32,000 nucleotides of DNA, taken from Crocosphaera subtropica ATCC 51142. Its GTDB lineage: Bacteria > Cyanobacteriota > Cyanobacteriia > Cyanobacteriales > Microcystaceae. Of this stretch, positions 11,430-31,605 are shown piece after piece. Position 1 is the first letter of the stretch. Each line of letters opens with the position of its first letter. Where the stretch lies: contig NC_010547.1 in assembly GCF_000017845.1 (NCBI RefSeq), forward strand, positions 60,001 through 92,000. The letters run 5' to 3'. The translations under genes and the position numbers were made by a program. The notes beneath the pieces are model-generated. The model made no database searches, was not told the origin of the DNA, and saw only the letters and a list, made by a program, of their open reading frames with translations.

Positions 11430-12389
11430 TTAAAGGGTAACAGAGGTAGCTAAGCAGTTATTTAGCTGTTGGCGGAGTTTATCGGCATCTAAATGACGAC
11501 CGATAAAGACTAGCTGGTTCACAGGGGAATTAGACCAAGGTTCGGACTTGATATCGTTGCGCTGTCCGCACAGTTGGAAAATGTGGCGTAATTGGCTTCC
11601 TGCAAACCAAACAATTCCTTTGGCACGAAAAACCTCTAGGGGAAGTTCTTCGTTTAAAAACTTGTGAAATTTATAGACATCAAAGGGTTTGTCGCTTTGA
11701 AAAGACATGGACATAAAACCCTCTGTTTTGAGGTGATGGGAATGTTGGCGATATTCTTGTTCAACAAAGCTATCTGTGTTAGTTAAACCCACATCCAAGA
11801 TTAAAGGTAACGGGACTTGGGCGTATTGGGTATGGATAATTCTGGGATTCTTTTTAACAGAGGCAATGTAGCTTTCTAATGCGGTTAGTTGTTCGTTATT
11901 TGCTAAATCAGTTTTATTCAATAAGAGAATATCTCCATAGGCGATTTGTTTAAACGCTACCTTGCTATCAAAATGTTCTGGGGTAAAGGTTTCTGCATCA
12001 ATTAAGGTAATCACCGCATCTAAGTGTGTAAAATATCGAAAATCTGAACCAACAAACGTCAAAATAATCGGTAGAGGGTCTGCTACCCCCGTCGTTTCGA
12101 TAATCAAACGATCTACTTTTTCTTTCCTAGCTAAGATTCGTTTTACCGCTTCTACCAAACCGTCATTGATAGTACAGCAAATACAACCATTGCTCAACTC
12201 CACCATGTCATCTTCGTAAGAAACTAAAAGTTGAGCATCGATATTAATATCACCAAACTCGTTAACCAAGACTGCAACTTTTTGATCAAGGTCATTTTGC
12301 AGAATTTGATTGAGTAAGGTGGTTTTTCCACTACCGAGAAAGCCGGTAATGATGGTAACTGGTAATCCTTGCTGGTTAATCTCTGACAT
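11430..12389 (-). CDS. COG0523 (CobW/ZigA/Zng1-like) G3E P-loop GTPase, putative zinc metallochaperone, paralog 1
   Basis: Walker A GFLGSGKTT, metal motif GCICCT and CobW_C-like end FRAKGIVWF...LVFIGRHLD. The short His patch is QHSHH. ATG 12389 is the likely start; the ORF is open to TTG 12404. Confidence 0.9.
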   Translation of the reverse strand: MSEINQQGLPVTIITGFLGSGKTTLLNQILQNDLDQKVAVLVNEFGDINIDAQLLVSYEDDMVELSNGCICCTINDGLVEAVKRILARKEKVDRLIIETTGVADPLPIILTFVGSDFRYFTHLDAVITLIDAETFTPEHFDSKVAFKQIAYGDILLLNKTDLANNEQLTALESYIASVKKNPRIIHTQYAQVPLPLILDVGLTNTDSFVEQEYRQHSHHLKTEGFMSMSFQSDKPFDVYKFHKFLNEELPLEVFRAKGIVWFAGSQLRHIFQLCGQRNDIKSEPWSNSPVNQLVFIGRHLDADKLRQQLNNCLATSVTL

Positions 12390-12432
12390 GACGAAGAGAA
12401 GCAATTGCCTTTACAAAAGTTAATTATACTAT

Positions 12433-12445
12433 AACGATAATCGTT
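12433..12445. promoter_or_regulatory. Degenerate Fur-family palindrome abutting a perfect -10 (minus-strand TATAAT at 12423-12428) upstream of COG0523 paralog 1
   Basis: aacgat-a-atcgtt is a perfect 6-1-6 palindrome with the GATAATC core. It is separated by 4 nt from the minus-strand TATAAT. Confidence 0.45.
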
Positions 12446-12522
12446 CTTAAATTTTTCAGAATTTTAAGTTTCCCATGCTGCCTATTCCTCCTGAAACTGG
12501 AGTAAACTTCAGGGAAAGTATG

Positions 12523-13563: not shown

Positions 13564-13593
13564 AGTCTTAAGTTAATTCGTTTCGGGATATTT

Positions 13594-13608
13594 TGATAAT
13601 GATTATCA
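13594..13608. promoter_or_regulatory. Zur-type operator, perfect 7-1-7 palindrome, in the divergent COG0523/thrS intergenic region
   Basis: TGATAAT-G-ATTATCA. Confidence 0.8.
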
Positions 13609-13621
13609 ATTTACGCTATTA

Positions 13622-13636
13622 TGATAATGATTATTA
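13622..13636. promoter_or_regulatory. Second Zur-type operator in the same intergenic region
   Basis: TGATAATGATTATTA, one mismatch from the perfect palindrome, 28 nt (start to start) from the first box. Confidence 0.7.
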
Positions 13637-13652
13637 TTACAATAACTTACCA

Positions 13653-15527
13653 GTGGTCAGCCAATTAACTCAATCTCCCTTGTCAATCGCCAACCCAGAA
13701 CAATTAGAACGCATTCGTCACACTTGCGCCCACGTCATGGCAATGGCAGTACAAATCTTATTTCCAGAGACAAAAGTTACCATTGGTCCCACGACAAATA
13801 CGGGTTTTTATTACGATTTTGATCGCCCACAACCCTTTGCCCCTGAAGATTTGAAAAAAATTACCAAGCAGATGCGCTTCATTATTAAGGCTAATTTGCC
13901 GATTATTCGTGAAGAGATAACTAGAGAAGAAATTAAAGCCGAAATCGAACAGTTAGGGGAACCTTATAAACTAGAGATTTTAGATAGCATCCCTGAAGGA
14001 GAAACCATCACCCGTTATTACATCGGCAGTCCCGACGGTGGTAGATTGCCAGATGTAGGAGAAAAACTCAAAACTGCTTTACCAGAACCTTCTTTGATTA
14101 AGCCTGTCAAAATTCCTGCTACAGTATCTTGGTGGGATCTCTGTGCTGGGCCTCATATTAACTACACAGGAGAGATTAACCCCAATGCTTTCGCCCTAGA
14201 AAGCGTAGCCGGGGCATACTGGCGCGGAGATGAAACCAAAGCTCAATTACAACGCATCTATGGTACAGCTTGGGAAACCCCCGAACAATTAGACGCTTAT
14301 TTGCAACAACAAGAAGAAGCTAAACGCCGAGATCATCGCAAACTAGGCAAAGAGTTAAAACTGTTTAGCATTCAAGAAAATGCTGGGGGTGGTTTGGTAT
14401 TTTGGCATCCTCGCGGTGCAACCATGCGTTACCTCATTGAAGATTATTGGCGTAAAGCTCATTTAGATGGAGGTTACGAACTTCTTTATACTCCCCACGT
14501 GGCTAACTTAGAATTGTGGAAAACATCAGGGCATTTTGACTTTTATCGGGAAAATATGTTCGATTCGATGGATATCGAGGAACAAGCTTATCAAATCAAA
14601 CCGATGAACTGTCCTTTTCACGTTTTAACTTATAAAAATGACCTTCATTCCTATCGAGAATTCCCATTGCGTTGGGCAGAATTAGGGACAGTGTATCGCT
14701 ACGAACGTTCTGGGGTTCTACATGGTTTAATGCGAGTACGGGGTTTTACTCAAGATGATGCTCATATTTTCTGTTTACCCACACAAATTGCTTCAGAAAT
14801 TTTGGGTGTACTCAATTTAACGGAAAAGATTCTTTCGGATTTTGGGTTTAAAGACTATGAAGTTAATCTTTCCACTCGCCCAGAGAAGTCAGTGGGGACA
14901 GATGAAGGTTGGGAATTGGCAACTCAAGCTTTAGTAGAAGCGTTAAATAGCAAAAGTTGGGAATATATTGAAGATAAGGGCGGCGGTGCTTTCTATGGTC
15001 CTAAAATCGATATCAAAATTAAAGATGCTATTGGACGGACTTGGCAATGTTCCACTATCCAGGTTGATTTTAACTTACCAGAACGCTTTGACATGGAATA
15101 TGTAGCAGCCGATGGTTCTCGTCAACGTCCGATTATGATTCATCGGGCAATTTTTGGGTCTTTAGAGCGTTTTTACGGAATTTTAATCGAAAACTATGCA
15201 GGAGATTTTCCTTTATGGTTAGCACCTATCCAATTACGTTTGTTACCAGTTAGTGAAGCACAAAGAGAATATGGGGAAGCTGTCGTTGCTACCCTAAAAG
15301 AGGCTGGTTATCGGGTAGAAATAGACTGTACAGGGGAACGTTTAGGCAAACAAATACGTAACGCCGAACTAGAAAAAATTCCTGTAGTGGCCATCGTTGG
15401 AAACAAAGAAGTTGAAACTCAAAGTTTGAGTATTCGTACTCGCCAACAGGGAGATATTGGTACAATGGATTTGACTGAGTTGAAAAAGAGTTTAGATGAT
15501 GCGATCGCTAATAAGACTAATATTTAG
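13653..15527 (+). CDS. thrS: Threonine--tRNA ligase (no TGS domain; editing, catalytic and anticodon-binding domains present)
   Basis: Editing motifs HTCAHVMA and LCAGPH. Class II catalytic core with Zn-ligand positions MNCPFH, QDDAHIF and MIHRAIFGS. The ORF is open from TTG 13593, but that part overlaps the operators, so GTG 13653 (MVSQLTQSP...) is my preferred start. Confidence 0.9.
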   Translation: MVSQLTQSPLSIANPEQLERIRHTCAHVMAMAVQILFPETKVTIGPTTNTGFYYDFDRPQPFAPEDLKKITKQMRFIIKANLPIIREEITREEIKAEIEQLGEPYKLEILDSIPEGETITRYYIGSPDGGRLPDVGEKLKTALPEPSLIKPVKIPATVSWWDLCAGPHINYTGEINPNAFALESVAGAYWRGDETKAQLQRIYGTAWETPEQLDAYLQQQEEAKRRDHRKLGKELKLFSIQENAGGGLVFWHPRGATMRYLIEDYWRKAHLDGGYELLYTPHVANLELWKTSGHFDFYRENMFDSMDIEEQAYQIKPMNCPFHVLTYKNDLHSYREFPLRWAELGTVYRYERSGVLHGLMRVRGFTQDDAHIFCLPTQIASEILGVLNLTEKILSDFGFKDYEVNLSTRPEKSVGTDEGWELATQALVEALNSKSWEYIEDKGGGAFYGPKIDIKIKDAIGRTWQCSTIQVDFNLPERFDMEYVAADGSRQRPIMIHRAIFGSLERFYGILIENYAGDFPLWLAPIQLRLLPVSEAQREYGEAVVATLKEAGYRVEIDCTGERLGKQIRNAELEKIPVVAIVGNKEVETQSLSIRTRQQGDIGTMDLTELKKSLDDAIANKTNI

Positions 15528-15589
15528 ATTTTTTAGTCTGATACTGTCAATTAGTAAAGCATCAAAGTAACTATATCTCCTAAGTAAAA

Positions 15590-16144
15590 ATGTTAAGTAT
15601 TGGAACACAAAAAAGCGATCGCATTACCACAATTACGAATACGACTTGGGCTGAATATATTAGTTTAAATTTGCCAAGTAAACGAGTTTCATTTCGCAAT
15701 GGAGTTATTACTATCGTGTCCCCAGGACGTAACCATGAATTGATCGGTGATTATGTTAGAGCCATTATTTGGGCTTACTGCCGTCAAAACAATATTGCAC
15801 TATTTCCTTACAACCAAACGACTCTTAAAGAAGAAGGAAAAGAAGGAAAAGAACCTGATGTTGCTTACTGTTTTGACATAGACAAAGATAAGCCAGATTT
15901 AGCAGTGGAAATAAATCTAACTTCAGGCAGTATCGACGATTTAACTAAATATCAATATTTAAAGATTTCTGAAGTTTGGCTATGGGAAAACAATAAAATT
16001 AGATTCTTTGTTTATCGTGATTCAGGATATTTAGAATTAACCACCAGTAATTATCTGCCTAACTTAAACAGCGAACACGTGACAAAAATTGTGAATAGTT
16101 GTTTTGGCAAAAGTGTTTTAGAAGTAGAAAAATATTTCTCTTAA
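15590..16144 (+). CDS. Uma2-family (DUF820) restriction-endonuclease-fold protein
   Basis: Typical cyanobacterial Uma2 layout: ...ITIVSPGRNHE..., PDVAY..., PDLAVEI..., KYQYLKISEVWLW (a PD-(D/E)xK-like core). Confidence 0.75.
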   Translation: MLSIGTQKSDRITTITNTTWAEYISLNLPSKRVSFRNGVITIVSPGRNHELIGDYVRAIIWAYCRQNNIALFPYNQTTLKEEGKEGKEPDVAYCFDIDKDKPDLAVEINLTSGSIDDLTKYQYLKISEVWLWENNKIRFFVYRDSGYLELTTSNYLPNLNSEHVTKIVNSCFGKSVLEVEKYFS

Positions 16145-16168
16145 AAATTAATTTGATAAGAACTAAAT

Positions 16169-16687
16169 ATGAACCAAAATGAATCTTTACTACCTTTAAA
16201 AATTGCAGTATTGACGGTTTCTGACACAAGAACAGAAGCTGATGATAAATCGGGCAAAATATTAGTGGATAATTTAACCGCCACAGGTCATTTGTTAGCA
16301 GAAAAAACTATCGTTCCCGATAACATTTACCAAATTCGTGCTGTAATATCTAGATGGGTTGCAGATGAGTCTGTTCAAGTCATTTTAACCACTGGTGGTA
16401 CGGGAGTGACAGGACGGGATGCAACTCCAGAAGCTATTAAACCCCTCTTAGACAAAGAAATTGAAGGGTTTGGTGAGATATTTCGCATGATTTCCTATCA
16501 AGAAATTAAAACCTCTACCATTCAGTCTCGAACTTTGGCTGGCGTGGCCAATGGGACTTATATCTTTTGTTTACCTGGTTCTAGCGGTGCTTGTCAAACA
16601 GGATGGAGTATTATCAAAGATCAACTTGATTCTCGCCATCGTCCCTGTAATTTAGCTCAATTGATACCGAGATTGACTGAAAATTAG
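16169..16687 (+). CDS. moaB: Molybdenum cofactor biosynthesis protein B (MoaB/MogA family)
   Basis: [30 protein letters not shown] and [10 protein letters not shown] are MoaB/MogA signatures. Confidence 0.85.
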
Positions 16688-16774
16688 AGATAAGAAAGTG
16701 AGAGCTTGAGGATAGTCGAGATGTTGCTTGTTTTTTAATTCTCAGATCCCTTTTTGCTCTCATCGTAGACTGTC

Positions 16775-17701
16775 TTAAACAATAATGAATTCTGATTCTG
16801 GAGTTGATTCAACCACAGGTTGTTGTCCCCTCAGTACAGAGTTACCACTATGTAGGTGACGTTGATCAATGGGAGAGGAATTTAACCAATCACTTTCTTT
16901 AATTTGTCCACTTTGTCCATAAGCCGTTAGAGCATTTTGATAGCAAACAGCTTTAATATGGTCTTCGGGAATGCCTTCTTGTTGCATTAATTGGGCAGTT
17001 TTTGGGACAGCTAAAGGATCACTTATGCCCCAATCTGCACTACTATCGACAATAATGCGATCACAACCATAGTTCCGCACCACCTCAACCATTCTTTTAT
17101 TACCCATTTTTGTGTGGGGATAAAGGGTAAAAGCTGCCCAAAATCCTCGATCTAAGACTTCTTTAACGGTTTCCTCGTTGTTATGGTCAACAATTACCAT
17201 CGATGGTTCTAAACCATGTTCTCGACAGACATCCATACTGCGAGATGTGCCGGATTTTTTATCCCGATGGGGAGTATGAATCATCACCGGTAAATTTAAT
17301 TCCTTGGCTAATTCTAACTGGAGACGAAAGTATTTATCTTCGGCCGGAGTCATATCGTCATAACCAATTTCTCCAATAGCTACCACTCCTTCTTTACAAG
17401 CATAAAGGGGTAATATTTCCATTACGCCTTCTGCTAATGCTTCATTATTGGCTTCTTTGGAGTTTAAACCCATAGTACAGTAGTGTTTGATGCCAAACTG
17501 ACTAGCGCGAAATCTCTCCCAACCAATTAGAGAACTGAGATAATCTTTATAAGTCTCAGCACTGGTACGTGGTTGCCCCAACCAAAAAGCTGGCTCAATA
17601 ACTGCCACGATTCCGGCTTTAGCCATTGCTTGATAGTCATCAGTGGTTCTGGAACTCATGTGGATGTGTGGGTCGATAAACATCATTTTATTTTTTAGCA
17701 T
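16775..17701 (-). CDS. TatD-related amidohydrolase-superfamily metal-dependent hydrolase
   Basis: FIDPHIH (HxH metal motif), GEIGYD, VMIHTPH, VIVDHNN and IVDSSADW follow the TIM-barrel metallohydrolase ligand pattern. Confidence 0.7.
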   Translation of the reverse strand: MLKNKMMFIDPHIHMSSRTTDDYQAMAKAGIVAVIEPAFWLGQPRTSAETYKDYLSSLIGWERFRASQFGIKHYCTMGLNSKEANNEALAEGVMEILPLYACKEGVVAIGEIGYDDMTPAEDKYFRLQLELAKELNLPVMIHTPHRDKKSGTSRSMDVCREHGLEPSMVIVDHNNEETVKEVLDRGFWAAFTLYPHTKMGNKRMVEVVRNYGCDRIIVDSSADWGISDPLAVPKTAQLMQQEGIPEDHIKAVCYQNALTAYGQSGQIKESDWLNSSPIDQRHLHSGNSVLRGQQPVVESTPESEFIIV

Positions 17702-17737
17702 TTGTTGATCTGATTATTGACTAGGGAAGTTAAAATG

Positions 17738-17756
17738 AGAACAATAATCATTATCA
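17738..17756. promoter_or_regulatory. Zur-type operator (variant) between the divergent TatD-like and QueD-like genes
   Basis: agaaCAATAATCATTATCA matches 13 of 15 positions of TGATAATCATTATCA and shares the GAGAA-AATAATCATT extension with the boxes at 19999, 23555 and 26958. Confidence 0.6.
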
Positions 17757-17873
17757 TTGTACATATTTTGTCAAAAAAGATCCCCAATGGATTGTATTAT
17801 GCGGTAATTGCGGAAATAAGGTTCTAAAAGATAAATGATGTTGTTTAATATTCTATCTCCATAGTTACAAGTG

Positions 17874-18236
17874 ATGAAGCAGTCCCTAATCTTCGATTAT
17901 CAAATCCGTGCTATCTTACGTCGCAAGCATCATAATCCTCCAATCTGGATAGAGAACCATTGGCATGATTTTCAAGTTACGTTACATCTTCGCGCTCAAC
18001 GTAATCCATCTGATATGTATGGATTAGATATGGTCGAGATGGAACAGCGACTACAGGAATGGGGAGAGCGTTTACCGATAATTGTAAACGATTGTCCTCT
18101 ATGTCCTGGAGGAACGACTGAGGAACTCTGTTGCTATTTTGCTTCTATTCCTTTAGAGAGTCATGTGACGTTAATTGGAGTTTCTGTCGCTGAAAATGCA
18201 GAACGACTCACTTATCTATCCATTAGTGAGACATAA
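17874..18236 (+). CDS. 6-pyruvoyl-tetrahydropterin synthase/QueD-fold protein with a degenerate metal site (tentative)
   Basis: By-eye alignment to E. coli QueD: NHWHDFQVTLHL vs LHGHSFMVRLEI; YGLDMVEMEQRL vs GWIIDFAELKAA; TTEELCCYF vs TSEVLAKWI. The first His ligand (AAHRL) reads AILRR here. Confidence 0.4.
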   Translation: MKQSLIFDYQIRAILRRKHHNPPIWIENHWHDFQVTLHLRAQRNPSDMYGLDMVEMEQRLQEWGERLPIIVNDCPLCPGGTTEELCCYFASIPLESHVTLIGVSVAENAERLTYLSISET

Positions 18237-18289
18237 AAAGCTGAGTCGTAAATTTCTCTGCGAACAAAAAATATTGCTCAAAACAATTG

Positions 18290-19273
18290 CTACTCTTTGG
18301 CGTTTCTTTTTGTCCAAATCCCCAAAAGACTAACTGTGATAATGCCAAATAAAACCCCTGGTTCAGGAACAGATGTAGGTGAACTGACAAAGCCAAAGAA
18401 AATGACTCCCGGATTCGTTCCTACCAAGTCCCAAGTGCCATCGGTGAGATTATAGCGAGCAATTCCACCCAATCGCTCAGAAGGGGTATCAGGATCATTA
18501 TCCGAGTCAATAAAATTAACATTGCCGAATAAAGTATCAAAAGACCCATCTTGATTCGTATCTACCCCAGTCAGTGCAGCAAATCCACTGTAGATAGAGC
18601 GATCGCCAGAAGTCACCGCTCCTACCGAACCGACAACCCCTGCCTCTCCCGTATCAGGATTAAAGTGAATTAAGCTATCAGTATCGAGATCCACGCCGTA
18701 AAGTTGATTTTCAACCGAACCAAGGCTAATAATAAAAGGCTCTGCTGTTCCTAGTGTTGAACCTCGTGCTTCATCGATCGCATCTCCAACCTCTGTCGTA
18801 CTTCCTTTAGGAATTGTCATCCCCGTAGTCAAGTCAAGGGCATTAATTTGCTGAGTGTTGAAGTTGCTATCAAAAGGGATAAGAAATCCACGCTGGTCGT
18901 CGAGAATGTCAAAACCGGTGCTAGTGAGTCCATTTGCACTACCAATCGGGGTTAAATTGGCTGTTAGCGGATCGATTTCTACCAATTGTCCTCCCGACGC
19001 AAAACCAAGTAACCGTTGATTCAGCGTTCCGGCAAGGGCTGAAGGAAGACCGGTTGTTTCAGGGGATACCGGGGTAGCGATCCCTGTATTAGAGTCAATG
19101 GCATAGATAAAGTTTTCCCGAATATCATCATGCTCACCAGGTACCGCAGGAATGAAACGCTGTCCTGAAGCATAAATTGTGACAGCTTGAGCTTGACCGA
19201 CCGACAAAAGTAATCCTATCGCCATGAGGACACACTCACTGGCTGTCCGTTTGCTAAAAATCTGATTGATCAC
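18290..19273 (-). CDS. Secreted repeat-rich (beta-propeller-like) protein with PEP-CTERM anchor
   Basis: Signal peptide ...GQAQA. C-terminus VPEPGVLFGIITVSLLGIWTKRNAKE. Confidence 0.75.
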   Translation of the reverse strand: MINQIFSKRTASECVLMAIGLLLSVGQAQAVTIYASGQRFIPAVPGEHDDIRENFIYAIDSNTGIATPVSPETTGLPSALAGTLNQRLLGFASGGQLVEIDPLTANLTPIGSANGLTSTGFDILDDQRGFLIPFDSNFNTQQINALDLTTGMTIPKGSTTEVGDAIDEARGSTLGTAEPFIISLGSVENQLYGVDLDTDSLIHFNPDTGEAGVVGSVGAVTSGDRSIYSGFAALTGVDTNQDGSFDTLFGNVNFIDSDNDPDTPSERLGGIARYNLTDGTWDLVGTNPGVIFFGFVSSPTSVPEPGVLFGIITVSLLGIWTKRNAKE

Positions 19274-19276
19274 TGT

Positions 19277-19975
19277 TTAACCTCTTCTAATCAAACCTTT
19301 ACATTTTCCGAGTCCCATCAGTGAAACCAATCCTAGTCCTACAAGGGTTGTCGGTTCAGGGACTTGACTGGCAATCATTCGTTGTCCGAATTCATCCCCT
19401 GCTGTTGGGTCATCTAATAATTCGGCAGTGGTTCGGGTGAAAAATGCCACATCTAAATGACTACCAAAACCAATTTCTAAATCGGGAAAATCATTGCCCC
19501 GGTCGGTTAAATGAACGTGAGGAATCGCAACACCGTCTGACCCGATGGGTGCGGCTGACCAAAAATTCAACCCATTAGCCAATCCATTAGCTTCGTCAAT
19601 TAACACATACTCCCCAATATCAATCCCATTGGGTTCGTCAAAAGAACCATCCTGTAAAATTGTTCTCGTTGTTGTGTCGAAATTGAAATTAAAGTCGGGA
19701 TAGGTCAAATGATTATCGATAAATTCTTTGATGAGATTGCCCTCTGGGTCAAAAAAGGCAATGTCAAAGGATTCAAGGTCATTTTTTCTAACAATGCCAT
19801 TGTCATAATCTTTGGTTTCATCATAGCTAAATGAACCCTCAGCCCGATAACCAAGGATTTGCCCAGTCCATGACAGTTGGAAGGTGACAGCTTGGGCTGG
19901 ATTTTCAGCCCAGAAAACTAGACTTGTCACCACTCCAAAGACTGATACCTTAATACTTTGCCGACAATCGAACAT
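19277..19975 (-). CDS. Secreted PEP-CTERM protein
   Basis: Signal peptide ...NPAQA. C-terminus VPEPTTLVGLGLVSLMGLGKCKGLIRRG. Its stop is 3 nt from the next gene's start. Confidence 0.75.
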   Translation of the reverse strand: MFDCRQSIKVSVFGVVTSLVFWAENPAQAVTFQLSWTGQILGYRAEGSFSYDETKDYDNGIVRKNDLESFDIAFFDPEGNLIKEFIDNHLTYPDFNFNFDTTTRTILQDGSFDEPNGIDIGEYVLIDEANGLANGLNFWSAAPIGSDGVAIPHVHLTDRGNDFPDLEIGFGSHLDVAFFTRTTAELLDDPTAGDEFGQRMIASQVPEPTTLVGLGLVSLMGLGKCKGLIRRG

Positions 19976-19998
19976 CTTGTCTTCTCCTAAACAAAATG

Positions 19999-20015
19999 AG
20001 AATAATAATCATTCT
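19999..20015. promoter_or_regulatory. Zur-type operator, AGAAT-variant, upstream of the PEP-CTERM gene pair
   Basis: AGAATAATAATCATTCT lies within a 26-nt block (19995-20020) that is identical in reverse complement to 26956-26981. Confidence 0.6.
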
Positions 20016-20096
20016 TATTTTAGGCATGAAAATTATGGTTGTTTGAACTATTATTGTTAAAAAAAACTAAAGCTTTAATCGTTGGACGAGGAACGG

Positions 20097-21545: not shown

Positions 21546-21548
21546 TTC

Positions 21549-21576
21549 ATTTATCATTTATCATTTAGCATTTACC
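21549..21576. repeat. Four tandem heptamers ATTTANC (minus strand GNTAAAT) immediately upstream of the cysS start
   Basis: atttatc atttatc atttagc atttacc. Confidence 0.8.
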
Positions 21577-21594
21577 ATTAATGTTCAATGAGGT

Positions 21595-22635: not shown

Positions 22636-22708
22636 AGTATTGAGTTAATTCGTCCTATTAATAAGGTTTTAGCTGATCAAGGATATCGAGGGAAGCGACC
22701 CCAACAGA

Positions 22709-23476
22709 TTAGGCTTGCTTTTTGAGTTTAGTCGCAAATCCTAACCCACAAATGGCGAGAAGACCAAGAATAGTTCCAGGTTCTGGTACGGAGTTGATGT
22801 TGATCGAAAGGTCGTCAATAAAAAAGGAACTAGATGGACCTGGCGAGTTAAATGTTGTGTTATCGAAAATGTGAAAAATCTCAACTTGTACTAGCTCCGT
22901 AGCAGGATTATCAAAAGCTTCGGAACCGATGAAGGTGCCGTCTACGAAAGCATTCGAGGTTTGTGTTTGGAAATCCAGAACCAACTTAAGGTCAATCCAC
23001 CTGTCGGTCTCAATAGCCGCCACTTCGCCCCCAAATTCTACGCGATTACCATCGCGGACGGCGAGTTGTGAAACGAAACCATTCTCACCAATCAAGGCCA
23101 TGGGTGAAAGGAATGTGGAAGGGGAAGTCCATCCGTCCGTTCCGTCGAGATAAATGGAGTGCTTCACTGACACCATCGGAGCGGATGTCGAATAAGGCCC
23201 GACTCGAAATGTCAGGCCAAAGGGGTTTTCACCTACAGCTTGACGTACCTCCAGCGATTGGGAACCCGTGCGTGCGAACCCCGACGTGACTACAGGATCA
23301 ATATCAAAACTGTTAAGCCAACCTTCTTGACCGCTGAGCGCACCCACTGAGTAGTCTGGTGCTTCATAGCTCGTCGAATAGAGGACACCAGCGTATGCCT
23401 CAGCATCAAAGCAAACTGCAGAGGTCATTCCGCAAAACAGCGGAACTATGAACATTCGGGCAGTTCTAATTTCCAT
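22709..23476 (-). CDS. Secreted PEP-CTERM protein (possible lectin/LamG-like beta-sandwich)
   Basis: N-terminal signal. C-terminus VPEPGTILGLLAICGLGFATKLKKQA. Confidence 0.7.
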   Translation of the reverse strand: MEIRTARMFIVPLFCGMTSAVCFDAEAYAGVLYSTSYEAPDYSVGALSGQEGWLNSFDIDPVVTSGFARTGSQSLEVRQAVGENPFGLTFRVGPYSTSAPMVSVKHSIYLDGTDGWTSPSTFLSPMALIGENGFVSQLAVRDGNRVEFGGEVAAIETDRWIDLKLVLDFQTQTSNAFVDGTFIGSEAFDNPATELVQVEIFHIFDNTTFNSPGPSSSFFIDDLSININSVPEPGTILGLLAICGLGFATKLKKQA

Positions 23477-23554
23477 GATTCATTCTCCCGTAACTAGGGG
23501 GTAAATGTTTCTGAAACTTGTTTGCATATTGTGTGCAATCATACCATTATTGTA

Positions 23555-23571
23555 AGAATGATTATTATTCT
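23555..23571. promoter_or_regulatory. Zur-type operator, AGAAT-variant, upstream of the PEP-CTERM/COG0523/cysS unit
   Basis: AGAATGATTATTATTCT, the same 17-mer as at 26958-26974. Confidence 0.6.
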
Positions 23572-23607
23572 CACAGTAAACATAACATAATAATACTTTG
23601 TATTTAT

Positions 23608-24093
23608 TTACAATTGTGTCGGGTTAGGGGTATCCCCATAAACGGCTTTGGGATCAAATGTTTTCTCGGTTTCAGTAAAAGTCAACTGTAGTGGTTGCTG
23701 GGAATCAATAGCATTTTTTCCCGTAGGAATACGGCGATAAAAACAAGAACGATAACCAACGTGACAACTAGCTCCCGAACCAGCGACTATAACCTGCATC
23801 CAGAGACAATCTTGGTCATCATCAATGGTTAACTGCGCTACTTTTTGCACCAGTCCACTGGATTGACCTTTATGCCATAGTTGCTGACGACTGCGACTGT
23901 AATAGTGAGCTTCTCCGGTTTCAATGGTTTTAACTAACGCCTCTTCGTTCATATAAGCGTGCATCAGCACTTCACCCGTGTTGACATCGGTGGTAACGAC
24001 TGGAATTAAACCATTGCCGTCGAATTTTGGAGCAAGGAACAAACCTTCTTCTACTTGTTCGACTGAAGTTCTGGCAGTAAATAGGGGATTCAT
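23608..24093 (-). CDS. hisI: Phosphoribosyl-AMP cyclohydrolase (monofunctional HisI)
   Basis: GLIPVVTTD...[13 protein letters not shown]...[17 protein letters not shown]...DCL...[10 protein letters not shown]. The Cys/His metal ligands are present. Confidence 0.88.
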
Positions 24094-24114
24094 ATTGGCT
24101 CAATTTTTCAATTT

Positions 24115-24129
24115 TGATAATCATTATCA
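24115..24129. promoter_or_regulatory. Zur-type operator, perfect 7-1-7 palindrome, upstream of hisI
   Basis: TGATAAT-C-ATTATCA, 22 nt upstream of the hisI ATG. Confidence 0.8.
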
Positions 24130-24147
24130 TAGTAAAAGGAATGACCT

Positions 24148-25797
24148 TTAGGTAATTAACAGTCCACCCCAGGCGAGTAATAAAGAAAAAAACATCGCAG
24201 CGATCGCCTGTTTCCCTAACAGCAATAAGGCAAATCGAGAAGATTTTTCCTGCATAATAGTTAACAGAGTAACTAAACAAGGTAGCAATACTCCTGCTAG
24301 ATAAACCCCAGTCAAAACTTGTAAGGGGGTCAACATAGCCAAGGTTTCTGGTTCGGCAAACAGCAGCAATCCGTCTTTGCGAATAGAAGCTAAAACAATA
24401 GGCAATGAGGCTTCAGGGGGTAGATTAAACCATCCCATTAAAGGATTGATAATATTGGCTAAAGTGGCAATCACGCCTAACCAATTCAAGACAGAAGCAA
24501 TAATCGTAATCATTAAAAAGATGGGAATGGCATTGAACAAAAATTGCTGAATCGTTGACTTAGCTTCGCGCCAAATGACCGACCAACGGGGGAATTCTAA
24601 AAAGGCTCTTCCTTCAATTACCAGGGAATTTTGAGTTGATTTGGCTGTCGGGGAAGAAATGATACGAGCATAGATTAAAGTAGTTATGGTTAGGTAAAGT
24701 AAGTAAGGAATTACTAAATAAGTTAACGAAGCCGCACTAAACACCCCTAAAGTGGCGCCAAACTGATAAGAACAAGCCGAACCAAAAGCGATCGCCGAAA
24801 TACAAGTTCCTCTAGAACAACTAGAACAGCCACGAGTGCTAATTACCGCAGGAACATTACAACCAAACCCCATAATGACTCGCACTAAATCCCTTCCCGA
24901 TAACCCGAACGGACGCAGTAAAGGATCGAGAGTAATCGTAATCCGTTCTACCAAACCACTAGCTTTATATGCACCCAAGAATAAAGCATAAAGAACTACT
25001 GTCGGCATTGCCCAAATAAACAACAACGGCCCCATCGTTACCAGTCCATATTGACCGATGAGTATTTCTTTTAACCCAATCGGGAGTTGGGATAACGGTT
25101 CAATCAAAGAAGCGACCGCAGCTTGCATGACGGGGTCTACTAAAGTGGCAAAGGAGTTAGCCCCCCAAACAGCAATTATGGCAGGAATCAGTAATAGGGT
25201 GATCGCTAGTAGCCAGCCCAGTCGCGGATGCTCTAACAGCGTCGGTTGCGGTTGAATGTGCCAACCAGCCCTTTGAGGAATCCATTGTGGGAGAAAAGGA
25301 TGAGGTTCTCGTAGAGCCTCTACAATCAAGTTTTGCTGTTCTGCTGTCAGGTAGCGAGCATCTACTGTGACAATGCTCAGGTTAGAGGTTTGGCTCCACT
25401 CTCGCACCACTTGTTGATTGTGGGTCGTTGAGGATAGCTTATCCCAAAAAGTAATCACCACAATACCCCGTTTATCTGCTACCAAGGGTAATAAATCTGC
25501 TAAATCTCGATCGACGTCAGTAGCTTTGACTACTAATAGTACCGTGTCATTCTCTTGCAACTGTCTCAAAGCTTGCCTAGTGGTTAGGCTGTCGGAACGA
25601 TAAAGAATTCCAGGGGTATCAATAAAACTATAGGCTTCAGATTGATACGTTTCGCAAGCTATGGTAGAGCCACGAAAATTGTCACTATATGCAGATTTAC
25701 CCGTCAGAGAAGCAATTAGTTGTGACTTGCCCGTATTTTCTTTGCCAATGACAACAACACAATCTCGTTCTATTTTTGAGGGTGTAAAGATATTCAT
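24148..25797 (-). CDS. FeoB-family metal transporter, short form (N-terminal small GTPase domain + membrane 'gate' domains)
   Basis: G1 GKENTGKS and G3 DTPG. FeoB membrane signature GFGCNVPAVISTRG followed by CSSCSRGTC. It is ~550 aa versus 773 aa for E. coli FeoB. The ORF is open to 25818 and overlaps the upstream gene. Confidence 0.75.
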   Translation of the reverse strand: MNIFTPSKIERDCVVVIGKENTGKSQLIASLTGKSAYSDNFRGSTIACETYQSEAYSFIDTPGILYRSDSLTTRQALRQLQENDTVLLVVKATDVDRDLADLLPLVADKRGIVVITFWDKLSSTTHNQQVVREWSQTSNLSIVTVDARYLTAEQQNLIVEALREPHPFLPQWIPQRAGWHIQPQPTLLEHPRLGWLLAITLLLIPAIIAVWGANSFATLVDPVMQAAVASLIEPLSQLPIGLKEILIGQYGLVTMGPLLFIWAMPTVVLYALFLGAYKASGLVERITITLDPLLRPFGLSGRDLVRVIMGFGCNVPAVISTRGCSSCSRGTCISAIAFGSACSYQFGATLGVFSAASLTYLVIPYLLYLTITTLIYARIISSPTAKSTQNSLVIEGRAFLEFPRWSVIWREAKSTIQQFLFNAIPIFLMITIIASVLNWLGVIATLANIINPLMGWFNLPPEASLPIVLASIRKDGLLLFAEPETLAMLTPLQVLTGVYLAGVLLPCLVTLLTIMQEKSSRFALLLLGKQAIAAMFFSLLLAWGGLLIT

Positions 25798-25805
25798 TTT
25801 CTTTT

Positions 25806-26927
25806 TTAACAAACACAATCGTTATCGCAGCAAGAAAGGTCATCTAAAAACAACCCTTCTCGACGATAGACTTGCAAGGGAGTCGTATCGATTTCCAGAC
25901 GTTGAGCGATCGCATTAACGACCACAGCAAATCGTTGCCGAAATTTGTAAATAAAGCAAAAAATTAACTCCCCGTGACGGACCGAAGGCCCGACGACAAA
26001 TAATCCTGGCGTTAGGGTAGACTCATCTTCTTGAGTCAGTGCCGCATAGCCATTTGACCAATCAAACATGGGAGCAATCTGTTTTAAACTGCTATCAAAA
26101 CCGGTACAGAGAATTGGCGGTGTTGAACTAAACCACTTTTCATACTTACTTTCTACTACATATCCATTTTTGACGGCCTTAACTTCTTCGATTTGTTTTT
26201 CCCCAATTAGCTCGACTCGACCCAGAGAATAAGCTATTTCGAGACGTCTTAGGCTATAGGGAGATAAAGAAATACTGGGGTCTGGGTCTAAGTTTGCCCA
26301 GCTACTGTTGCGATCTAATAACTTGACTTTTTTCCCTAATGCTGCTAAGTTTGACGCTGCATCGACACCGCTTTCATAGCCCCCAACCACCACAAATTCA
26401 TCTCCTTCAAGCTTGGACCAAGAACGGACTTGAGAATTATGAATACATAAATCCGCACCAGGAAACGGGTTTAAACGAGGATATTGAAATTCTCCTGCTG
26501 CCCAAATGACAAACTGCGCTCGGAACTCACCTCTATTGGTTTGAATAACAAACCCCTTGCATTGACGTAGAACTTCAATTGTTTCTACATCCGTCTCAGT
26601 TTTTACGGGAAGTTGAAAATACTCGGTGATAGTCTCCAAATATAAGGCATACTCCTTCCCCGAAAGATGTTCCTGTCCAAAGGTGAGGGCAGGAGAAGTT
26701 TTTAAAACGACTGAATTGAGATCCAGGAGTCCAAACCCATGACTGGGAAACGACGGCGTAATGAAGCGCATTTCCTCTGGCCAACGGCTAAAAGAAGCAC
26801 CCACTTGATGCCGTTCTAAAATAACAAAGTTTTCAATGCCTAAATCTTTTAAGACCACCCCACAACCAATTCCAGCAGCCCCAGCTCCGACAATGACAAC
26901 GTCATATTGGGGATTCTTGGTATTCAT
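25806..26927 (-). CDS. FAD/NAD(P)-binding oxidoreductase (flavin-monooxygenase / CzcO-like class) with a Cys-rich C-terminal tail
   Basis: Two dinucleotide-binding motifs, VVIVGAGAAG and FVVVGGYESG. The C-terminus is LSCCDNDCVC. Confidence 0.7.
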   Translation of the reverse strand: MNTKNPQYDVVIVGAGAAGIGCGVVLKDLGIENFVILERHQVGASFSRWPEEMRFITPSFPSHGFGLLDLNSVVLKTSPALTFGQEHLSGKEYALYLETITEYFQLPVKTETDVETIEVLRQCKGFVIQTNRGEFRAQFVIWAAGEFQYPRLNPFPGADLCIHNSQVRSWSKLEGDEFVVVGGYESGVDAASNLAALGKKVKLLDRNSSWANLDPDPSISLSPYSLRRLEIAYSLGRVELIGEKQIEEVKAVKNGYVVESKYEKWFSSTPPILCTGFDSSLKQIAPMFDWSNGYAALTQEDESTLTPGLFVVGPSVRHGELIFCFIYKFRQRFAVVVNAIAQRLEIDTTPLQVYRREGLFLDDLSCCDNDCVC

Positions 26928-26957
26928 CGGCAGACAACCTCGAGATACTTTTTTATA

Positions 26958-26974
26958 AGAATGATTATTATTCT
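26958..26974. promoter_or_regulatory. Zur-type operator, AGAAT-variant, in the divergent flavoprotein/COG0523 intergenic region
   Basis: AGAATGATTATTATTCT, 31 nt from the flavoprotein ATG. Confidence 0.6.
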
Positions 26975-27082
26975 CATTTTATCAGTTAATGAGCTAATAT
27001 AAAAAAGAATGTATATCAACCGATAGAGTAAATCTACCTGTTGATTGTTTTCTTGCCCATAAGTTAACTACTCCGAAAAATT

Positions 27083-28174
27083 ATGCAAATAGTGGATAAA
27101 CAGCCCCGAAACAATGATATAATTGATGCAACCAAACGGGGCGTACCTGTAACAGTTATTACTGGGTTTCTCGGAAGTGGAAAAACAACACTTCTCAACC
27201 ACATTTTAACCAATCAAGAAGGAATAAAAACAGCAGTTTTAGTAAATGAGTTTGGAGAAATTGGCATTGATAATGAGTTAATTGTTACCACTGAAGATAA
27301 TGTAGTAGAACTCAACAATGGTTGCGTCTGTTGCACAATTAACGAAGATTTAGTTCAAGCAGTTTATAAAGTTTTAGAACGTCCTGAAAAAGTAGATTAC
27401 CTGATTGTTGAAACCACAGGATTAGCTGATCCTATCCCAGTTGCTTTTACGTTTTTGGGGACAGAATTAAGAGACATGACTCGTCTAGATTCTATCATTA
27501 CAATGGTAGATTGTGCTAATTTCAGCCTCGATTTATTCAAGTCAGAAGCAGCTCAAAGTCAGATTGCTTATGGAGATATTATTGTTTTAAATAAGACTGA
27601 CTTAGTAGATGAAGCTGAGGTCGATTCTTTAGAAAATAGAATTAGAGAGATGAAAGAATCTGCTAGAATTTTGCGTACTAAGAAATCTCAAGTTTCCTTG
27701 CCGTTAATTCTGAGTGTGGGATTATTTGAATCTGATAAATATTTTGAGCATCAAGAAATTGAACATCACCATGATCACGACCATGATCACCATGATCACC
27801 ATCACCATGATCATGACCACGATCATCATCACCATGATCACCATTCCCATCATTTAGAAAATGATGGTTTTACCTCCGTTTCTTTTGAAAGCGATAAACC
27901 TTTTTCTCTTCGGAAATTTCAATATTTTCTAGATAACCAAATCCCCAAAAATGTTTTTCGAGCTAAAGGTATTTTATGGTTCAATGAAAGTAGCGATCGC
28001 CACATTTTTCATCTTAGTGGTAAGCGGTTTACTTTAGAAGATGATCAATGGAAAGGGACACCCAAAAATCAATTGGTTTTGATTGGACAAAATTTGGATA
28101 AGGATAAATTGTATCAACAGATCGAGCATTGTTTATCTGTTCCTACCACAACCAAAGGCAAAGAACTCGATTAA
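27083..28174 (+). CDS. COG0523 G3E GTPase with long His-rich insert, putative zinc metallochaperone, paralog 4
   Basis: GFLGSGKTT, GCVCCT and FRAKGILWF. His-rich insert HHHDHDHDHHDHHHHDHDHDHHHHDHHSHH. Confidence 0.92.
   Translation: MQIVDKQPRNNDIIDATKRGVPVTVITGFLGSGKTTLLNHILTNQEGIKTAVLVNEFGEIGIDNELIVTTEDNVVELNNGCVCCTINEDLVQAVYKVLERPEKVDYLIVETTGLADPIPVAFTFLGTELRDMTRLDSIITMVDCANFSLDLFKSEAAQSQIAYGDIIVLNKTDLVDEAEVDSLENRIREMKESARILRTKKSQVSLPLILSVGLFESDKYFEHQEIEHHHDHDHDHHDHHHHDHDHDHHHHDHHSHHLENDGFTSVSFESDKPFSLRKFQYFLDNQIPKNVFRAKGILWFNESSDRHIFHLSGKRFTLEDDQWKGTPKNQLVLIGQNLDKDKLYQQIEHCLSVPTTTKGKELD
27764..27853 (+). repeat. (CAY/GAY)n codon microsatellite encoding the His/Asp tract
   Basis: 30 consecutive codons, all His (CAT/CAC) or Asp (GAT/GAC) except one Ser (TCC). 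Confidence 0.9.
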
Positions 28175-28180
28175 TTCGAT

Positions 28181-28903
28181 TTAATTACCGAAACCCTTTT
28201 TCTCCCCATAGTAAACTGTCTTAAACTCCAAACAATCGCTATTAGGACTATAAAGGGTGTAAGTAGCCTTTCCTGGTTCTCTACCGACATTTCCTACCCC
28301 TACAACCCTTCTTTTGGGTGCAGTCATGGTTTGCGTGGGTTCCTGGCGATCTAAAGTCATCACCGCACTATTAACCGAACCCCTTTGTAATACATATTCA
28401 AATACTTGACCGGAACGACCACAAAAAAGAGAATTGGCCTCTACTCTTTGCAAACGGTCGAGCATTTGCCAGGGGGGGGTTTCGGGGGTTAACTCATCGC
28501 TGGCACTAACGGTGCTACCGTGAATTAACAGACAATCTAATTCAAAGAAGCCAAAATGACAATTACGTAACCATTGTACCGTTTCACGGGATATGGAATC
28601 CCAGAGAATTTTTGTGGTTTCCATACCAAAGCGATCAATTAATTCTGTCGGTTCTGATGTCGAACCGACAGCGTGTAAAGCAAAGCATTGTTCCTCCCAC
28701 CAACCGACACAGACTTGGGGTTGTAATTCTCCAGGTAAAGGGTTTTGAATTCGTTTAATTACTTTTTCGCTATTGGGGTTGGCTGCTATGATATCCCCTA
28801 AAATATACAATGCCTCTACTGGAATGCGTTGGCGTTTGATATCTGCCAATACTGCCTCGTAAGCTGCGATATTTCCTTCAATTCCACTTAAAATTGCCCA
28901 CAT
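28181..28903 (-). CDS. Metallophosphoesterase-fold protein with degenerate metal ligands (probable pseudoenzyme)
   Basis: It aligns to the upstream paralog, but SDIHGN reads SGIEGN and GHTH reads GRSG. GD (ILGD) and IHGS are retained. Confidence 0.7.
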   Translation of the reverse strand: MWAILSGIEGNIAAYEAVLADIKRQRIPVEALYILGDIIAANPNSEKVIKRIQNPLPGELQPQVCVGWWEEQCFALHAVGSTSEPTELIDRFGMETTKILWDSISRETVQWLRNCHFGFFELDCLLIHGSTVSASDELTPETPPWQMLDRLQRVEANSLFCGRSGQVFEYVLQRGSVNSAVMTLDRQEPTQTMTAPKRRVVGVGNVGREPGKATYTLYSPNSDCLEFKTVYYGEKKGFGN

Positions 28904-28937
28904 TGATTTTCAATTCTTTATATTTAAGTAATTTAAG

Positions 28938-29753
28938 TTACCTTTCGCAAACATGAGTCGGATCGTCCGCTTTTTCGGCAAATTCCAAGCCTCTAGCCAA
29001 ACGCCAAGCAAAAATCGGTGGTAAACCTGCATCTAAAATAGCTTTGCAGGTTATTTTATAGTCATACTCCACCTCTCGTAAGTTTACTGCTTGTGTCTCT
29101 GTATCATAAATCACATAGGTAGCATTGGGACGACCATGACGGGGTTCCCCAACCGAACCGACATTGATAATTCGTTTGAGAGGAGTATTAAAACTAACGG
29201 TAGGTTGTTCCTTTTTATGGGGTTGATGAACGCTTACCTGTAATTGTCCAGAATCTAAGGTGCGAACGTAGGGAACATGGGTATGTCCGCAAAATAATAT
29301 CTCTGCATCACTGGAAAGGACTCTTTCTAAAGCAGTAAAAGCATCCATTTCGGGTAACAAATATTCGTGGTTGCTATGAGGACTACCATGTGCGAAACAG
29401 AGATTCCCTTCTTTATAAGTATGGGGGAGTTGGGCTAAATATTCACGAACTTCGGGATTGACGTGCTTATTTGTCCATTCGTGAGCAATTACACCTCTTT
29501 TTTCCGCTAAAAGGGAAGGATAACTACACTCACAAGCGTTGAGTCCTTCTACAATATCTTCATCCCAACAACCCTGTACAGTGGGAATGTCTAAAGAACG
29601 AATTTGCTCAGCTACTGCATTGGGAAAGGGTCCATAACCCACTAAATCCCCAAGACAATAAATCTTTTCGGCTTTTTGTTGGTCAATATCCAGTAAAACT
29701 GCCTCTAAAGCTGCATAATTACCATGAATATCTGATATTACTGCTATTTTCAT
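28938..29753 (-). CDS. Metallophosphoesterase (YfcE/MJ0936-like calcineurin-fold phosphoesterase)
   Basis: Canonical motifs SDIHGN, LGDLVGYG, AHGSP, CGHTH and NVGSVG. Confidence 0.8.
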   Translation of the reverse strand: MKIAVISDIHGNYAALEAVLLDIDQQKAEKIYCLGDLVGYGPFPNAVAEQIRSLDIPTVQGCWDEDIVEGLNACECSYPSLLAEKRGVIAHEWTNKHVNPEVREYLAQLPHTYKEGNLCFAHGSPHSNHEYLLPEMDAFTALERVLSSDAEILFCGHTHVPYVRTLDSGQLQVSVHQPHKKEQPTVSFNTPLKRIINVGSVGEPRHGRPNATYVIYDTETQAVNLREVEYDYKITCKAILDAGLPPIFAWRLARGLEFAEKADDPTHVCER

Positions 29754-30496
29754 AATACCTCTAATTCAGTTGCTAAAGCTTCTTTTACTTGTTGTTGATA
29801 ATAATTAATGGCTACTTCGGGAACGCAGCAATCTCGGACAGTCTGAACAATTTCAGCTTTATCTAAATTACTACCCACTACTTCAAAACCACTAAAACGA
29901 TCTGGTTTACCATTTAACCAACGGGGTAAATTTAAGGGTTTAAATGCTAATTCCGATTTCCCTGATATAAAATCACCATAATAAATTTGTCCGTCTGCTA
30001 AATCAAAGATTCCCTTGGCCCGAACGACTTCACCGTAAGCACCTTGGATAAGTTCCAGCCAAAAAGTAGCCAAACTGTTCATATCTAAGATTTCGCCTGT
30101 CAAAACGCCCCGATGAATCTGTAAACCTGTGGTTGGTTTAATAATGTTAATTGCTGAAATAATTTCCTCGGCCCAACTCTTTAATTCTGTACCGTCTGTA
30201 TCATCTGGAATGATAGCCACTCGATGAGAATTATCCGTTTGCAGTAAAGGTTCAATTCCCTCTTTATCTAAATACCAGGGAATTTCAACATAGGTGATGG
30301 TGTCAGTGAATGCTGCTTCTTCTCCTGTCTGATAAAGCTTCAATTGAGGATATTTACTTTGGAGATAAATGGCATCAATGGGGATGGAATCGGTTTCGGG
30401 GCTGAAATAGCCCACAGTTTTATTAGTTTGGGCTATTTGTTGATGAATCCAGTGGGTTTTGCCCGCACCTGGGGGACTAGCGACAGCAATAATCAT
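29750..30496 (-). CDS. Divergent CobW/COG0523-like P-loop protein lacking the CxCC metal motif
   Basis: Walker A SPPGAGKT. CobW_C-like C-terminal half VVRAKGIFDL...FEVVGSNLD. There is no GCxCC. The stop overlaps the next gene's start (ATGA). Confidence 0.6.
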   Translation of the reverse strand: MIIAVASPPGAGKTHWIHQQIAQTNKTVGYFSPETDSIPIDAIYLQSKYPQLKLYQTGEEAAFTDTITYVEIPWYLDKEGIEPLLQTDNSHRVAIIPDDTDGTELKSWAEEIISAINIIKPTTGLQIHRGVLTGEILDMNSLATFWLELIQGAYGEVVRAKGIFDLADGQIYYGDFISGKSELAFKPLNLPRWLNGKPDRFSGFEVVGSNLDKAEIVQTVRDCCVPEVAINYYQQQVKEALATELEVL

Positions 30497-30508: not shown

Positions 30509-30529
30509 TGATAATGATAATCATTATAG
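30509..30529. promoter_or_regulatory. Fur-family/Zur-type operator (two overlapping boxes) between hemB and the CobW-like gene
   Basis: tGATAATGATAATCATTATAg. Positions 30510-30528 match the classical 19-bp Fur-family consensus GATAATGATAATCATTATC at 18 of 19. Confidence 0.75.
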
Positions 30530-30570: not shown

Positions 30571-31596
<1,026 letters not shown>

Positions 31597-31605
31597 TCAT
31601 CAAAA

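Follow-up and report, generated by a model that had tools for sequence, protein, structure and literature searches.

A region of about 21 kb (approximately 10.7–31.7 kb) within a 32,000-nt stretch of Crocosphaera subtropica (Cyanothece sp.) ATCC 51142 (NC_010547.1, positions 60,001 to 92,000 of the forward strand; hereafter the window, in whose coordinates all positions are given) is, judging from its predicted operators and gene content, likely a zinc-limitation island under the Fur-family sensor Zur. The island encodes four canonical GTPases of the COG0523 family (P1–P4) and a CxCC-less protein of predicted YjiA-like fold (P5), set among folE, thrS, cysS, hisI, hemB, and two metallophosphoesterase-like genes. 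A first-pass annotation of this DNA had read the same genes as five COG0523-type proteins, each beside a distinct zinc enzyme and each the dedicated chaperone of its neighbor. Given variable neighbors among related loci and the lack of context-specific residues in P2 and P3, the layout appears to be one of reshuffled Zur-controlled cassettes, with a small number of stable couples instead of five set pairs. The locus is an unusually dense case of an already described arrangement and offers no evidence that each enzyme has a chaperone of its own. Established here directly are the identities and motifs of the genes, the operator sites with their positions, and the conservation or variability of neighbors; from these we infer that Zur binds the sites, that zinc limitation induces the genes, and that zinc is transferred.

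A search of the window with a Zur-box consensus, which agrees with published cyanobacterial Zur sites including sites of ATCC 51142, retrieved 29 matches at ≤3 mismatches against 3.8 expected, a count reached by none of the shuffled sequences. At the stricter limit of ≤2 mismatches, 11 sites remain, all but one of which occupy promoter regions of the island (13.6–31.6 kb); these ten boxes are predicted to be the 7-1-7 palindromes of a Zur regulon. The divergent promoter region between P2 and thrS holds two of them, a perfect box (13594–13608; TGATAATGATTATCA at 13594) and one with a single mismatch (13622–13636), in agreement with the two operators that the first-pass annotation had placed there. 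Further boxes are located at 17742–17756 (common to the TatD-like gene and the divergent QueD-like gene), 19997–20011 (minus strand, ahead of a two-gene PEP-CTERM unit and kept in 3/3 relatives), 23559–23573 (minus strand, ahead of the PEP-CTERM gene that precedes P3–cysS), 24115–24129 (minus strand, perfect, ahead of hisI), 26962–26976 (common to the flavoprotein gene and the divergent P4), 30509–30529 (minus strand, an overlapping pair ahead of P5), and 31606–31620 (minus strand, ahead of hemB). Two boxes apparently inside thrS are an artefact of an extended open reading frame (ORF), whose likely start is GTG 13653.

The placement of these boxes recurs among 50 related loci, in which they precede thrS in 17/17 cases, hemB in 5/5, hisI in 10/12, genes of the P2/3 clade in 37/44, and P4 in 6/6. 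An own Zur box is rare for cysS (1/11) and folE (2/21), which suggests that these two genes depend on the promoter of the upstream COG0523 gene. For cysS, the region of the box at 23559–23573 is probably the promoter of a transcript running through the PEP-CTERM gene PEP255, P3, and cysS; the 73-nt gap between PEP255 and P3 contains no Zur box. A promoter-like TTGATA-18-TATTAT (13593–13622) overlaps the P2/thrS boxes, and is given descriptively, as are all results of the promoter and terminator scans, which did not exceed shuffled expectation. Rfam detected no ZTP riboswitch, other riboswitch, or RNA element in the window. With the whole region constituting a single predicted Zur-box regulon, its clustering is explicable by co-regulation alone.

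The four proteins that the first-pass annotation had called canonical GCxCC members of COG0523 are just that. P1 (11430–12404, minus strand; probable start ATG 12389), P2 (12523–13563, minus strand), P3 (21595–22635, minus strand), and P4 (27083–28174, plus strand) match Pfam cobW (PF02492; E 2.8e-55 to 2.8e-60) and CobW_C (PF07683; E ~1e-23 to 1e-24), with values of 2.6e-56 and 1.1e-23 for P1. All four contain GFLGSGKT, GC[IV]CC, ETTG, NK[TI]D, and FRAKG. The motif N(G/S)CxCC between G2 and G3 is the metal-binding motif of COG0523 and reads NGCICC in P1–P3 and NGCVCC in P4; RxKG, an arginine finger, is the one motif that does not vary among COG0523 C-terminal domains. The differing His content of the linkers was also read correctly: P1 carries QHSHH, P2 and P3 are devoid of such a tract, and P4 has a 30-residue His/Asp tract (residues 228–257; 27764–27853). 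An alignment of P2 with E. coli YjiA (PDB 1NIJ, 4IXM), to our knowledge the only COG0523 protein of solved structure, spans both domains (E 1e-39). P3 is a duplicate of P2 (86% protein identity, 86.5% DNA identity), with the DNA duplication covering the gene and only 18 nt upstream; the pair shows a synonymous divergence (dS) of 0.56 and a ratio of nonsynonymous to synonymous divergence (dN/dS) of 0.14, indicative of purifying selection. The P1, P2/3, and P4 clades are mutually only 50–58% identical. That four of the roughly 11 COG0523 genes of the genome should fall within some 20 genes is far more than chance would give (~2e-5).

Whether each GTPase has an enzyme of its own was approached with a neighbor-labelled tree of 66 COG0523 proteins from the related loci, in which adjacencies were counted. 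In 13/14 relatives, folE comes immediately after the P1-clade gene; the metallophosphoesterase gene comes next after P5 in 7/7. The P2/3 clade is variable, its downstream neighbors being P1 (8), cysS (8), folE (3), or P4 (2), and its upstream neighbors divergent thrS (11), hisI (5), or, in one case each, the flavoprotein gene, the QueD-like gene, and the degenerate phosphoesterase gene. Locus L031 has a single P2/3 copy flanked by hisI and cysS; thrS is encoded on the other strand, further upstream. Across the related loci, no column of the alignment tells thrS-side and cysS-side P2/3 copies apart; within Crocosphaera, five positions differ between the two, four of them near the C-terminal end (328–337). 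The upstream neighbor of P5 is hemB in just 2/7 relatives. Conserved operon pairs thus counted appear to be only P1→folE, P5→metallophosphoesterase, and, less strictly, P2/3→cysS.

Measured against these counts, the pairings of the first-pass annotation fared unevenly. P3 is indeed closely upstream of cysS (gap 37 nt), and P2, probably the first gene of a P2–P1–folE operon, is divergent from thrS. The operon of P1 with folE holds as an arrangement (14-nt gap, conserved in relatives), with the caveat that folE itself is broken in this strain by a 1-nt deletion. P4 is divergent from a flavoprotein/FeoB-like/hisI string, as claimed, and the gene identities are confirmed; hisI, however, is separated from P4 by 3 kb and is served by an operator of its own. 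All neighbors were identified as proposed, and not all are zinc enzymes: HemB is predicted to be of the Asp type, without zinc at the catalytic site. Dedicated pairing is contradicted for P2 versus P3, P4–HisI, and P5–HemB, and survives as a candidate relationship only for P1–FolE, P2/3–CysRS (cysteinyl-tRNA synthetase), and P5–phosphoesterase.

The neighboring enzymes themselves resemble low-zinc paralogs more than housekeeping clients, an indication that comes from the Zur boxes together with an insert in the threonyl-tRNA synthetase (ThrRS), the Asp-type HemB, an altered HisI, and the presence of two CysRS. The thrS paralog (13653–15527, plus strand, from the probable start GTG 13653) encodes a T2-like ThrRS without a TGS domain. 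Relative to PDB 6VU9, it has an insert of ~32 residues directly before the DLCAGPH editing motif and keeps the Cys/His/His zinc ligands. T2-type enzymes are recognized by an insertion next to the DxCRGPH editing motif and by Zur-controlled expression; here, the insert and two upstream Zur boxes are present. At the same position, "insert a" marks the zinc-deficiency-induced, editing-impaired T2 ThrRS of Anabaena (Rubio 2015). The cysS paralog (20097–21557, minus strand) is without an operator of its own and keeps the Cys/Cys/His/Glu zinc ligands; ATCC 51142 is listed with two CysRS genes (Rubio 2015, Dataset S1).

Monofunctional hisI (23608–24093, minus strand) encodes DDDQDC in place of the canonical DCDxD, such that Asp takes the place of the ligand Cys (by our own count, Cys86 of PDB 1ZPS) and a Cys is found at +4. 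This variant is kept in 12 relatives, and a 51%-identical HisI of locus L049 is canonical. The HisI of the island may therefore be read as a low-zinc paralog with an altered metal site. The hemB paralog (30571–31620, minus strand) belongs to the Asp-rich type: an Asp-rich sequence, kept in relatives, stands in place of the Cys triad at the active-site metal position, and the nearest structural matches, the ALADs 1W1Z and 1B4K, have the DVALDPF motif in common with it. Both of these ALADs we take to be Mg-type, zinc-independent enzymes, on which basis HemB is predicted to be a zinc-independent form.

The folE paralog (10760–11415, minus strand) encodes a type IA GTP cyclohydrolase I with the zinc ligands CEHH and HMC kept. 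A 1-nt deletion converts a T5 run to T4 (A-run 11214–11217 on the plus strand) and splits the gene into ORFs of 67 and 140 amino acids, both of which match PF01227; the strain evidently does without this copy, and it keeps P1 intact even though the conserved partner of P1 is broken. A strong terminator-like hairpin lies beside folE at 10743–10711. Programmed frameshifting was considered and rejected, because an X XXY YYZ heptamer is lacking and the T5 run of the relatives leaves their gene in frame. A sequencing error is unlikely, given that the T4 run occurs in three other (Logan) assemblies of the strain; T5 and an intact gene are found in all relatives.

Several observations weigh against a uniformly Zur-controlled island of zinc-sparing paralogs. 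No zur gene lies within the window. The upstream gaps of P1 and P3 contain no operator of their own, and the 118-nt gap between P2 and P1 includes a promoter-like TTAAGA-16-TATAAT (12450–12423, minus strand) without a Zur box; P1–folE could have some Zur-independent expression. A housekeeping copy elsewhere in the genome is documented only for CysRS, by a literature table. Finally, ThrRS, CysRS, and FolE retain all of their zinc ligands, which implies that zinc is still needed and leaves room for chaperone-assisted loading.

P5 (29750–30496, minus strand) is a 248-residue P-loop protein, 100% identical to a "conserved hypothetical protein" of ATCC 51142, and the first-pass annotation had called it a degenerate COG0523 protein. 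By sequence, it is not recognizable as a COG0523 GTPase. Neither P5 nor any of 25 family members matches the cobW G-domain (PF02492), P5 has no NCBIfam match, and a motif search found CxCC and NKxD absent. A global hhalign comparison of P5 with COG0523 returned no match, and a permissive local profile–profile alignment was weak and collinear, with the CxCC segment deleted (E 7e-4, probability 27%). The claim of kinship fared better at the C-terminal end. P5 has a CobW_C-like domain scoring 21.4 bits, under the cut-off of 22; 21/25 family members match PF07683 at E ≤ 0.01 (best 1.2e-6), and hhalign aligns P5 with the COG0523 C-terminal domain at E 9e-4. Also retained across the family are a P-loop (xPPGxGKT) and the motif RAKG, in which R159, K161, and G162 are invariant.

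A profile of P5 searched against 1.84 billion proteins retrieved 137 representatives, mostly of 240–280 residues; one canonical COG0523 protein was matched (E 2e-4), through its C-terminal domain. The AlphaFold2 model (predicted local distance difference test 83) has YjiA entries as its three best Foldseek matches, with probability 1.0 and E 2e-7 at a TM-score of only 0.31, a low value ascribed to domain placement and size. Compared with YjiA, the N-domain of P5 is truncated (~125 residues) and devoid of CxCC and NKxD. The best description of P5 is as one of a small family that derives from COG0523 and has no canonical metal site. The P5 gene overlaps by 4 nt that of a 271-residue metallophosphoesterase (28938–29753, minus strand). 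Two metallophosphoesterases had been proposed here; the second gene (28181–28903, minus strand) encodes a degenerate paralog of 240 residues, 29% identical to the first, that has lost the DxH and GH ligand motifs. P5, the metallophosphoesterase, and the ligand-less paralog (28181–30496) make up a three-gene unit that is conserved and preceded by a Zur box.

The idea of one-to-one pairing has precedents in the literature, where "one chaperone per metalloprotein" has been judged unlikely for zinc. Zur-regulated COG0523 genes co-localized with HisI, HemB, CysRS, ThrRS, QueD, and FolE paralogs, some of which keep and some of which lose their zinc ligands, have already been described (Haas 2009). 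The clusters in question, for example in Cupriavidus metallidurans and Pseudomonas fluorescens, combine the same families as the present island and resemble it in having HemB2 without zinc ligands and CysRS and ThrRS with ligands kept (Haas 2009). The island differs from them in that its folE is of type IA with zinc ligands rather than FolE2/IB, its HisI ligand motif is changed where theirs is conserved, and its density of COG0523 genes is higher. Two Cyanothece 51142 sites appear in Additional file 5 of Haas 2009, neither of which is this island.

The Anabaena Zur regulon includes three COG0523 genes, hemB2, thrS2, and folE2, and joint Zur control of these families is predicted for proteobacteria too. 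In Anabaena sp. PCC 7120, the all4725–all4721 operon (hemB2, thrS2, COG0523 gene all4722, folE2; Rubio 2015) draws on the same gene families. Shared features are an Asp-type hemB, a ThrRS insert by the editing motif, a COG0523 gene directly upstream of folE, a 7-1-7 palindrome as operator, and boxes before hemB and before thrS. The island, in contrast, has four COG0523 genes plus P5 where the operon has one, and adds cysS, hisI, QueD-like, TatD-like, FeoB-like plus flavoprotein, PEP-CTERM, and phosphoesterase genes; thrS is divergent from the COG0523 gene here and co-transcribed with it there, and folE here is frameshifted. The adjacent COG0523 protein was proposed as a chaperone of T2 ThrRS in Anabaena, and no All4722–ThrRS2 interaction was detected (Rubio 2015).

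Among explanations of what the GTPases do, the one that survives best, possible though somewhat unlikely as a full account, is that the COG0523 paralogs are largely redundant. They would then form a dosage or buffering reservoir and general allocator of zinc (or another metal), produced by local duplication without division of labor, with the His/Asp tract of P4 adding low-affinity capacity. The P2/P3 duplication, limited to the gene and its short upstream stretch, argues for this, as do the many relatives with two or more P2/3 copies in differing contexts. The strain holds eleven COG0523 genes (Haas 2009). Moreover, His-rich inserts are common among cyanobacterial COG0523 proteins and differ from one to the next; 77% of 150 such proteins have His-rich linkers. 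Redundancy sits less easily with the purifying selection on both duplicates at their considerable dS, with the age of the P1, P2/3, and P4 clades, which are retained side by side in many genomes, and with a P1–folE coupling too constant for a purely generic role.

That each paralog is the dedicated zinc chaperone of its adjacent enzyme (P1–FolE, P2–ThrRS, P3–CysRS, P4–HisI or the flavoprotein/FeoB-like pair, P5–HemB or the phosphoesterases) is very unlikely. Part of the case stands: the near-invariant P1→folE and invariant P5→phosphoesterase orders, the transcription of cysS and folE normally behind a COG0523 gene, and the zinc ligands kept in FolE, ThrRS, and CysRS are all as expected of such pairs. 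Divergent C-terminal domains have been proposed to prevent crosstalk among paralogs in one cell, and the limited identity of the P1, P2/3, and P4 clades would suit this. Precedents exist in ZNG1–METAP1 and in Bacillus subtilis ZagA (YciC)–FolE, the latter tying a COG0523 protein to GTP cyclohydrolase I under zinc limitation; P1–folE is the best-conserved pair here. ZagA, however, serves a housekeeping FolE IA and responds to ZTP, whereas the partner here is a Zur-regulated IA-type copy. The zagA gene itself has folE2/IB as its neighbor. Against five dedicated pairs stand the near-identity of P2 and P3 with no context-specific residue, the widely varying P2/3 neighbors with single copies among several enzyme genes, a zinc-independent HemB seldom upstream of P5, a P5 without CxCC, a distant hisI with its own operator, a folE pseudogene beside an intact P1, and the COG0523–ThrRS2 interaction sought in vain in Anabaena (Rubio 2015).

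A narrower proposal, that at least one conserved operon couple is a truly dedicated GTPase–client pair, is unlikely on present evidence; the candidates are P2/3 loading zinc into CysRS, or P5 activating the metallophosphoesterase through its RxKG finger. A further hypothesis, one of two put forward in Haas 2009, has the COG0523 proteins supplying the paralogous enzymes with a metal other than zinc (e.g., Co, Fe, or Mn) when zinc is short. The Cys→Asp change in HisI and the metallophosphoesterase partner of P5 would fit it, but it is very unlikely: only zinc supports ThrRS2 activity in Anabaena (Rubio 2015), ThrRS, CysRS, and FolE show no change in their zinc ligands, and CxCC is a high-affinity zinc site in the COG0523 members studied in the literature.

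The remaining genes of the island extend the same regulatory theme. The flavoprotein gene (Pyr_redox_3; 25806–26927, minus strand) overlaps by 13 nt the gene of an FeoB-like GTPase-permease (24148–25818, minus strand) that scores below the feoB equivalog cut-off; together, the two are a candidate metal-uptake unit of the low-zinc response. The flavoprotein/FeoB-like/hisI order is kept in loci L007, L013, and L044. The box common to the TatD-like hydrolase gene (16775–17701, minus strand) and the weakly QueD/PTPS-like gene (17871–18236, plus strand; 121 amino acids) stands between these divergent genes, and the Zur regulons of proteobacteria are known to include QueD paralogs. Downstream of thrS, a Uma2-family gene and a MoaB/MogA-like gene (15590–16687) follow without a Zur box of their own, and the thrS–Uma2–MoaB order is kept in many related loci.

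Three of the four PEP-CTERM genes of the island, in two transcription units, are located behind Zur boxes: an exoprotein pair (19277–19975 and 18290–19273, minus strand) and PEP255 (22709–23476, minus strand). The fourth (31645–32000) runs off the end of the window and encodes 275 residues in locus L001. Neighborhoods of zepA contain thrS, cysS, QueD, COG0523, and PEP-CTERM genes (Sarasa-Buisan 2024), and PEP-CTERM genes with Zur boxes likewise stand by thrS, cysS, QueD-like, and COG0523 genes here. Identity of a PEP-CTERM protein of the island with ZepA was nevertheless rejected, as none of the four contains the H-x(2-9)-H-[FY]-H motif that defines ZepA, and the homolog list names no ZepA.

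To the left of the island (65–7473) are genes for the C-terminal part of MetE (a zinc enzyme), an OprB porin, a NicO-like transporter, and DUF4198 and DUF2267 proteins, and this part of the window contains no strong Zur box. MetE-like genes (L007, L051) and OprB-like genes (L018, L021, L049) recur beside the islands of other genomes.

The GC content of the window is even, at ~0.40. The replicon of 429,701 bp on which P5 is encoded is presumably the linear chromosome of ATCC 51142, and the island thus apparently lies on that 430-kb element. The linear chromosome shows synteny only with Cyanothece CCY0110. A contig of C. chwakensis CCY0110 has the same gene order as the island, with proteins 88–99% identical, which fits this placement; outside CCY0110, the island is present as shuffled cassettes in related loci.

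Taken together, these features suggest how a zinc-limitation island of this kind would operate. Under zinc sufficiency, Zn-Zur would sit on the 7-1-7 palindromes (TGATAATNATTATCA) overlapping the promoters and repress some ten transcription units, all of which would be released together when zinc runs short. The released genes would supply substitutes or back-ups for zinc enzymes, comprising the zinc-independent Asp-type HemB, the T2-like ThrRS, the second CysRS, the HisI with altered motif, the FolE copy (inactivated in this strain), and the QueD-like and TatD-like proteins. Alongside these, the four COG0523 GTPases would bind zinc at CxCC and allocate the scarce metal by GTP hydrolysis, with RxKG in the C-terminal domain assisting as an arginine finger. 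PEP-CTERM exoproteins, together with the FeoB-like permease and its flavoprotein, would provide an export and uptake component. Gene adjacency would mainly reflect shared regulation and modular shuffling of Zur-controlled cassettes, with the stable operon couples P1–folE, P2/3–cysS, and P5–phosphoesterase as candidate functional pairs.

The arrangement, its control by Zur, and the chaperone hypothesis are all in the literature already, and the current picture is unchanged by this locus. Its value is that of a convenient test bed, in which several paralogs stand beside different zinc-requiring paralog enzymes; this matters because the clients of bacterial COG0523 proteins are largely unknown, those of the zinc chaperones among them almost entirely so. 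The comparative data narrow the worthwhile pairs to three, P1–FolE, P2/3–CysRS, and P5–phosphoesterase, and speak against treating P2 and P3 as specialists. Should the Zur-induced CysRS receive its zinc from P2/3, it would be the first client of a zinc chaperone among the aminoacyl-tRNA synthetases, and activation of the phosphoesterase by P5 would represent a COG0523-derived accessory protein working without the canonical metal site.

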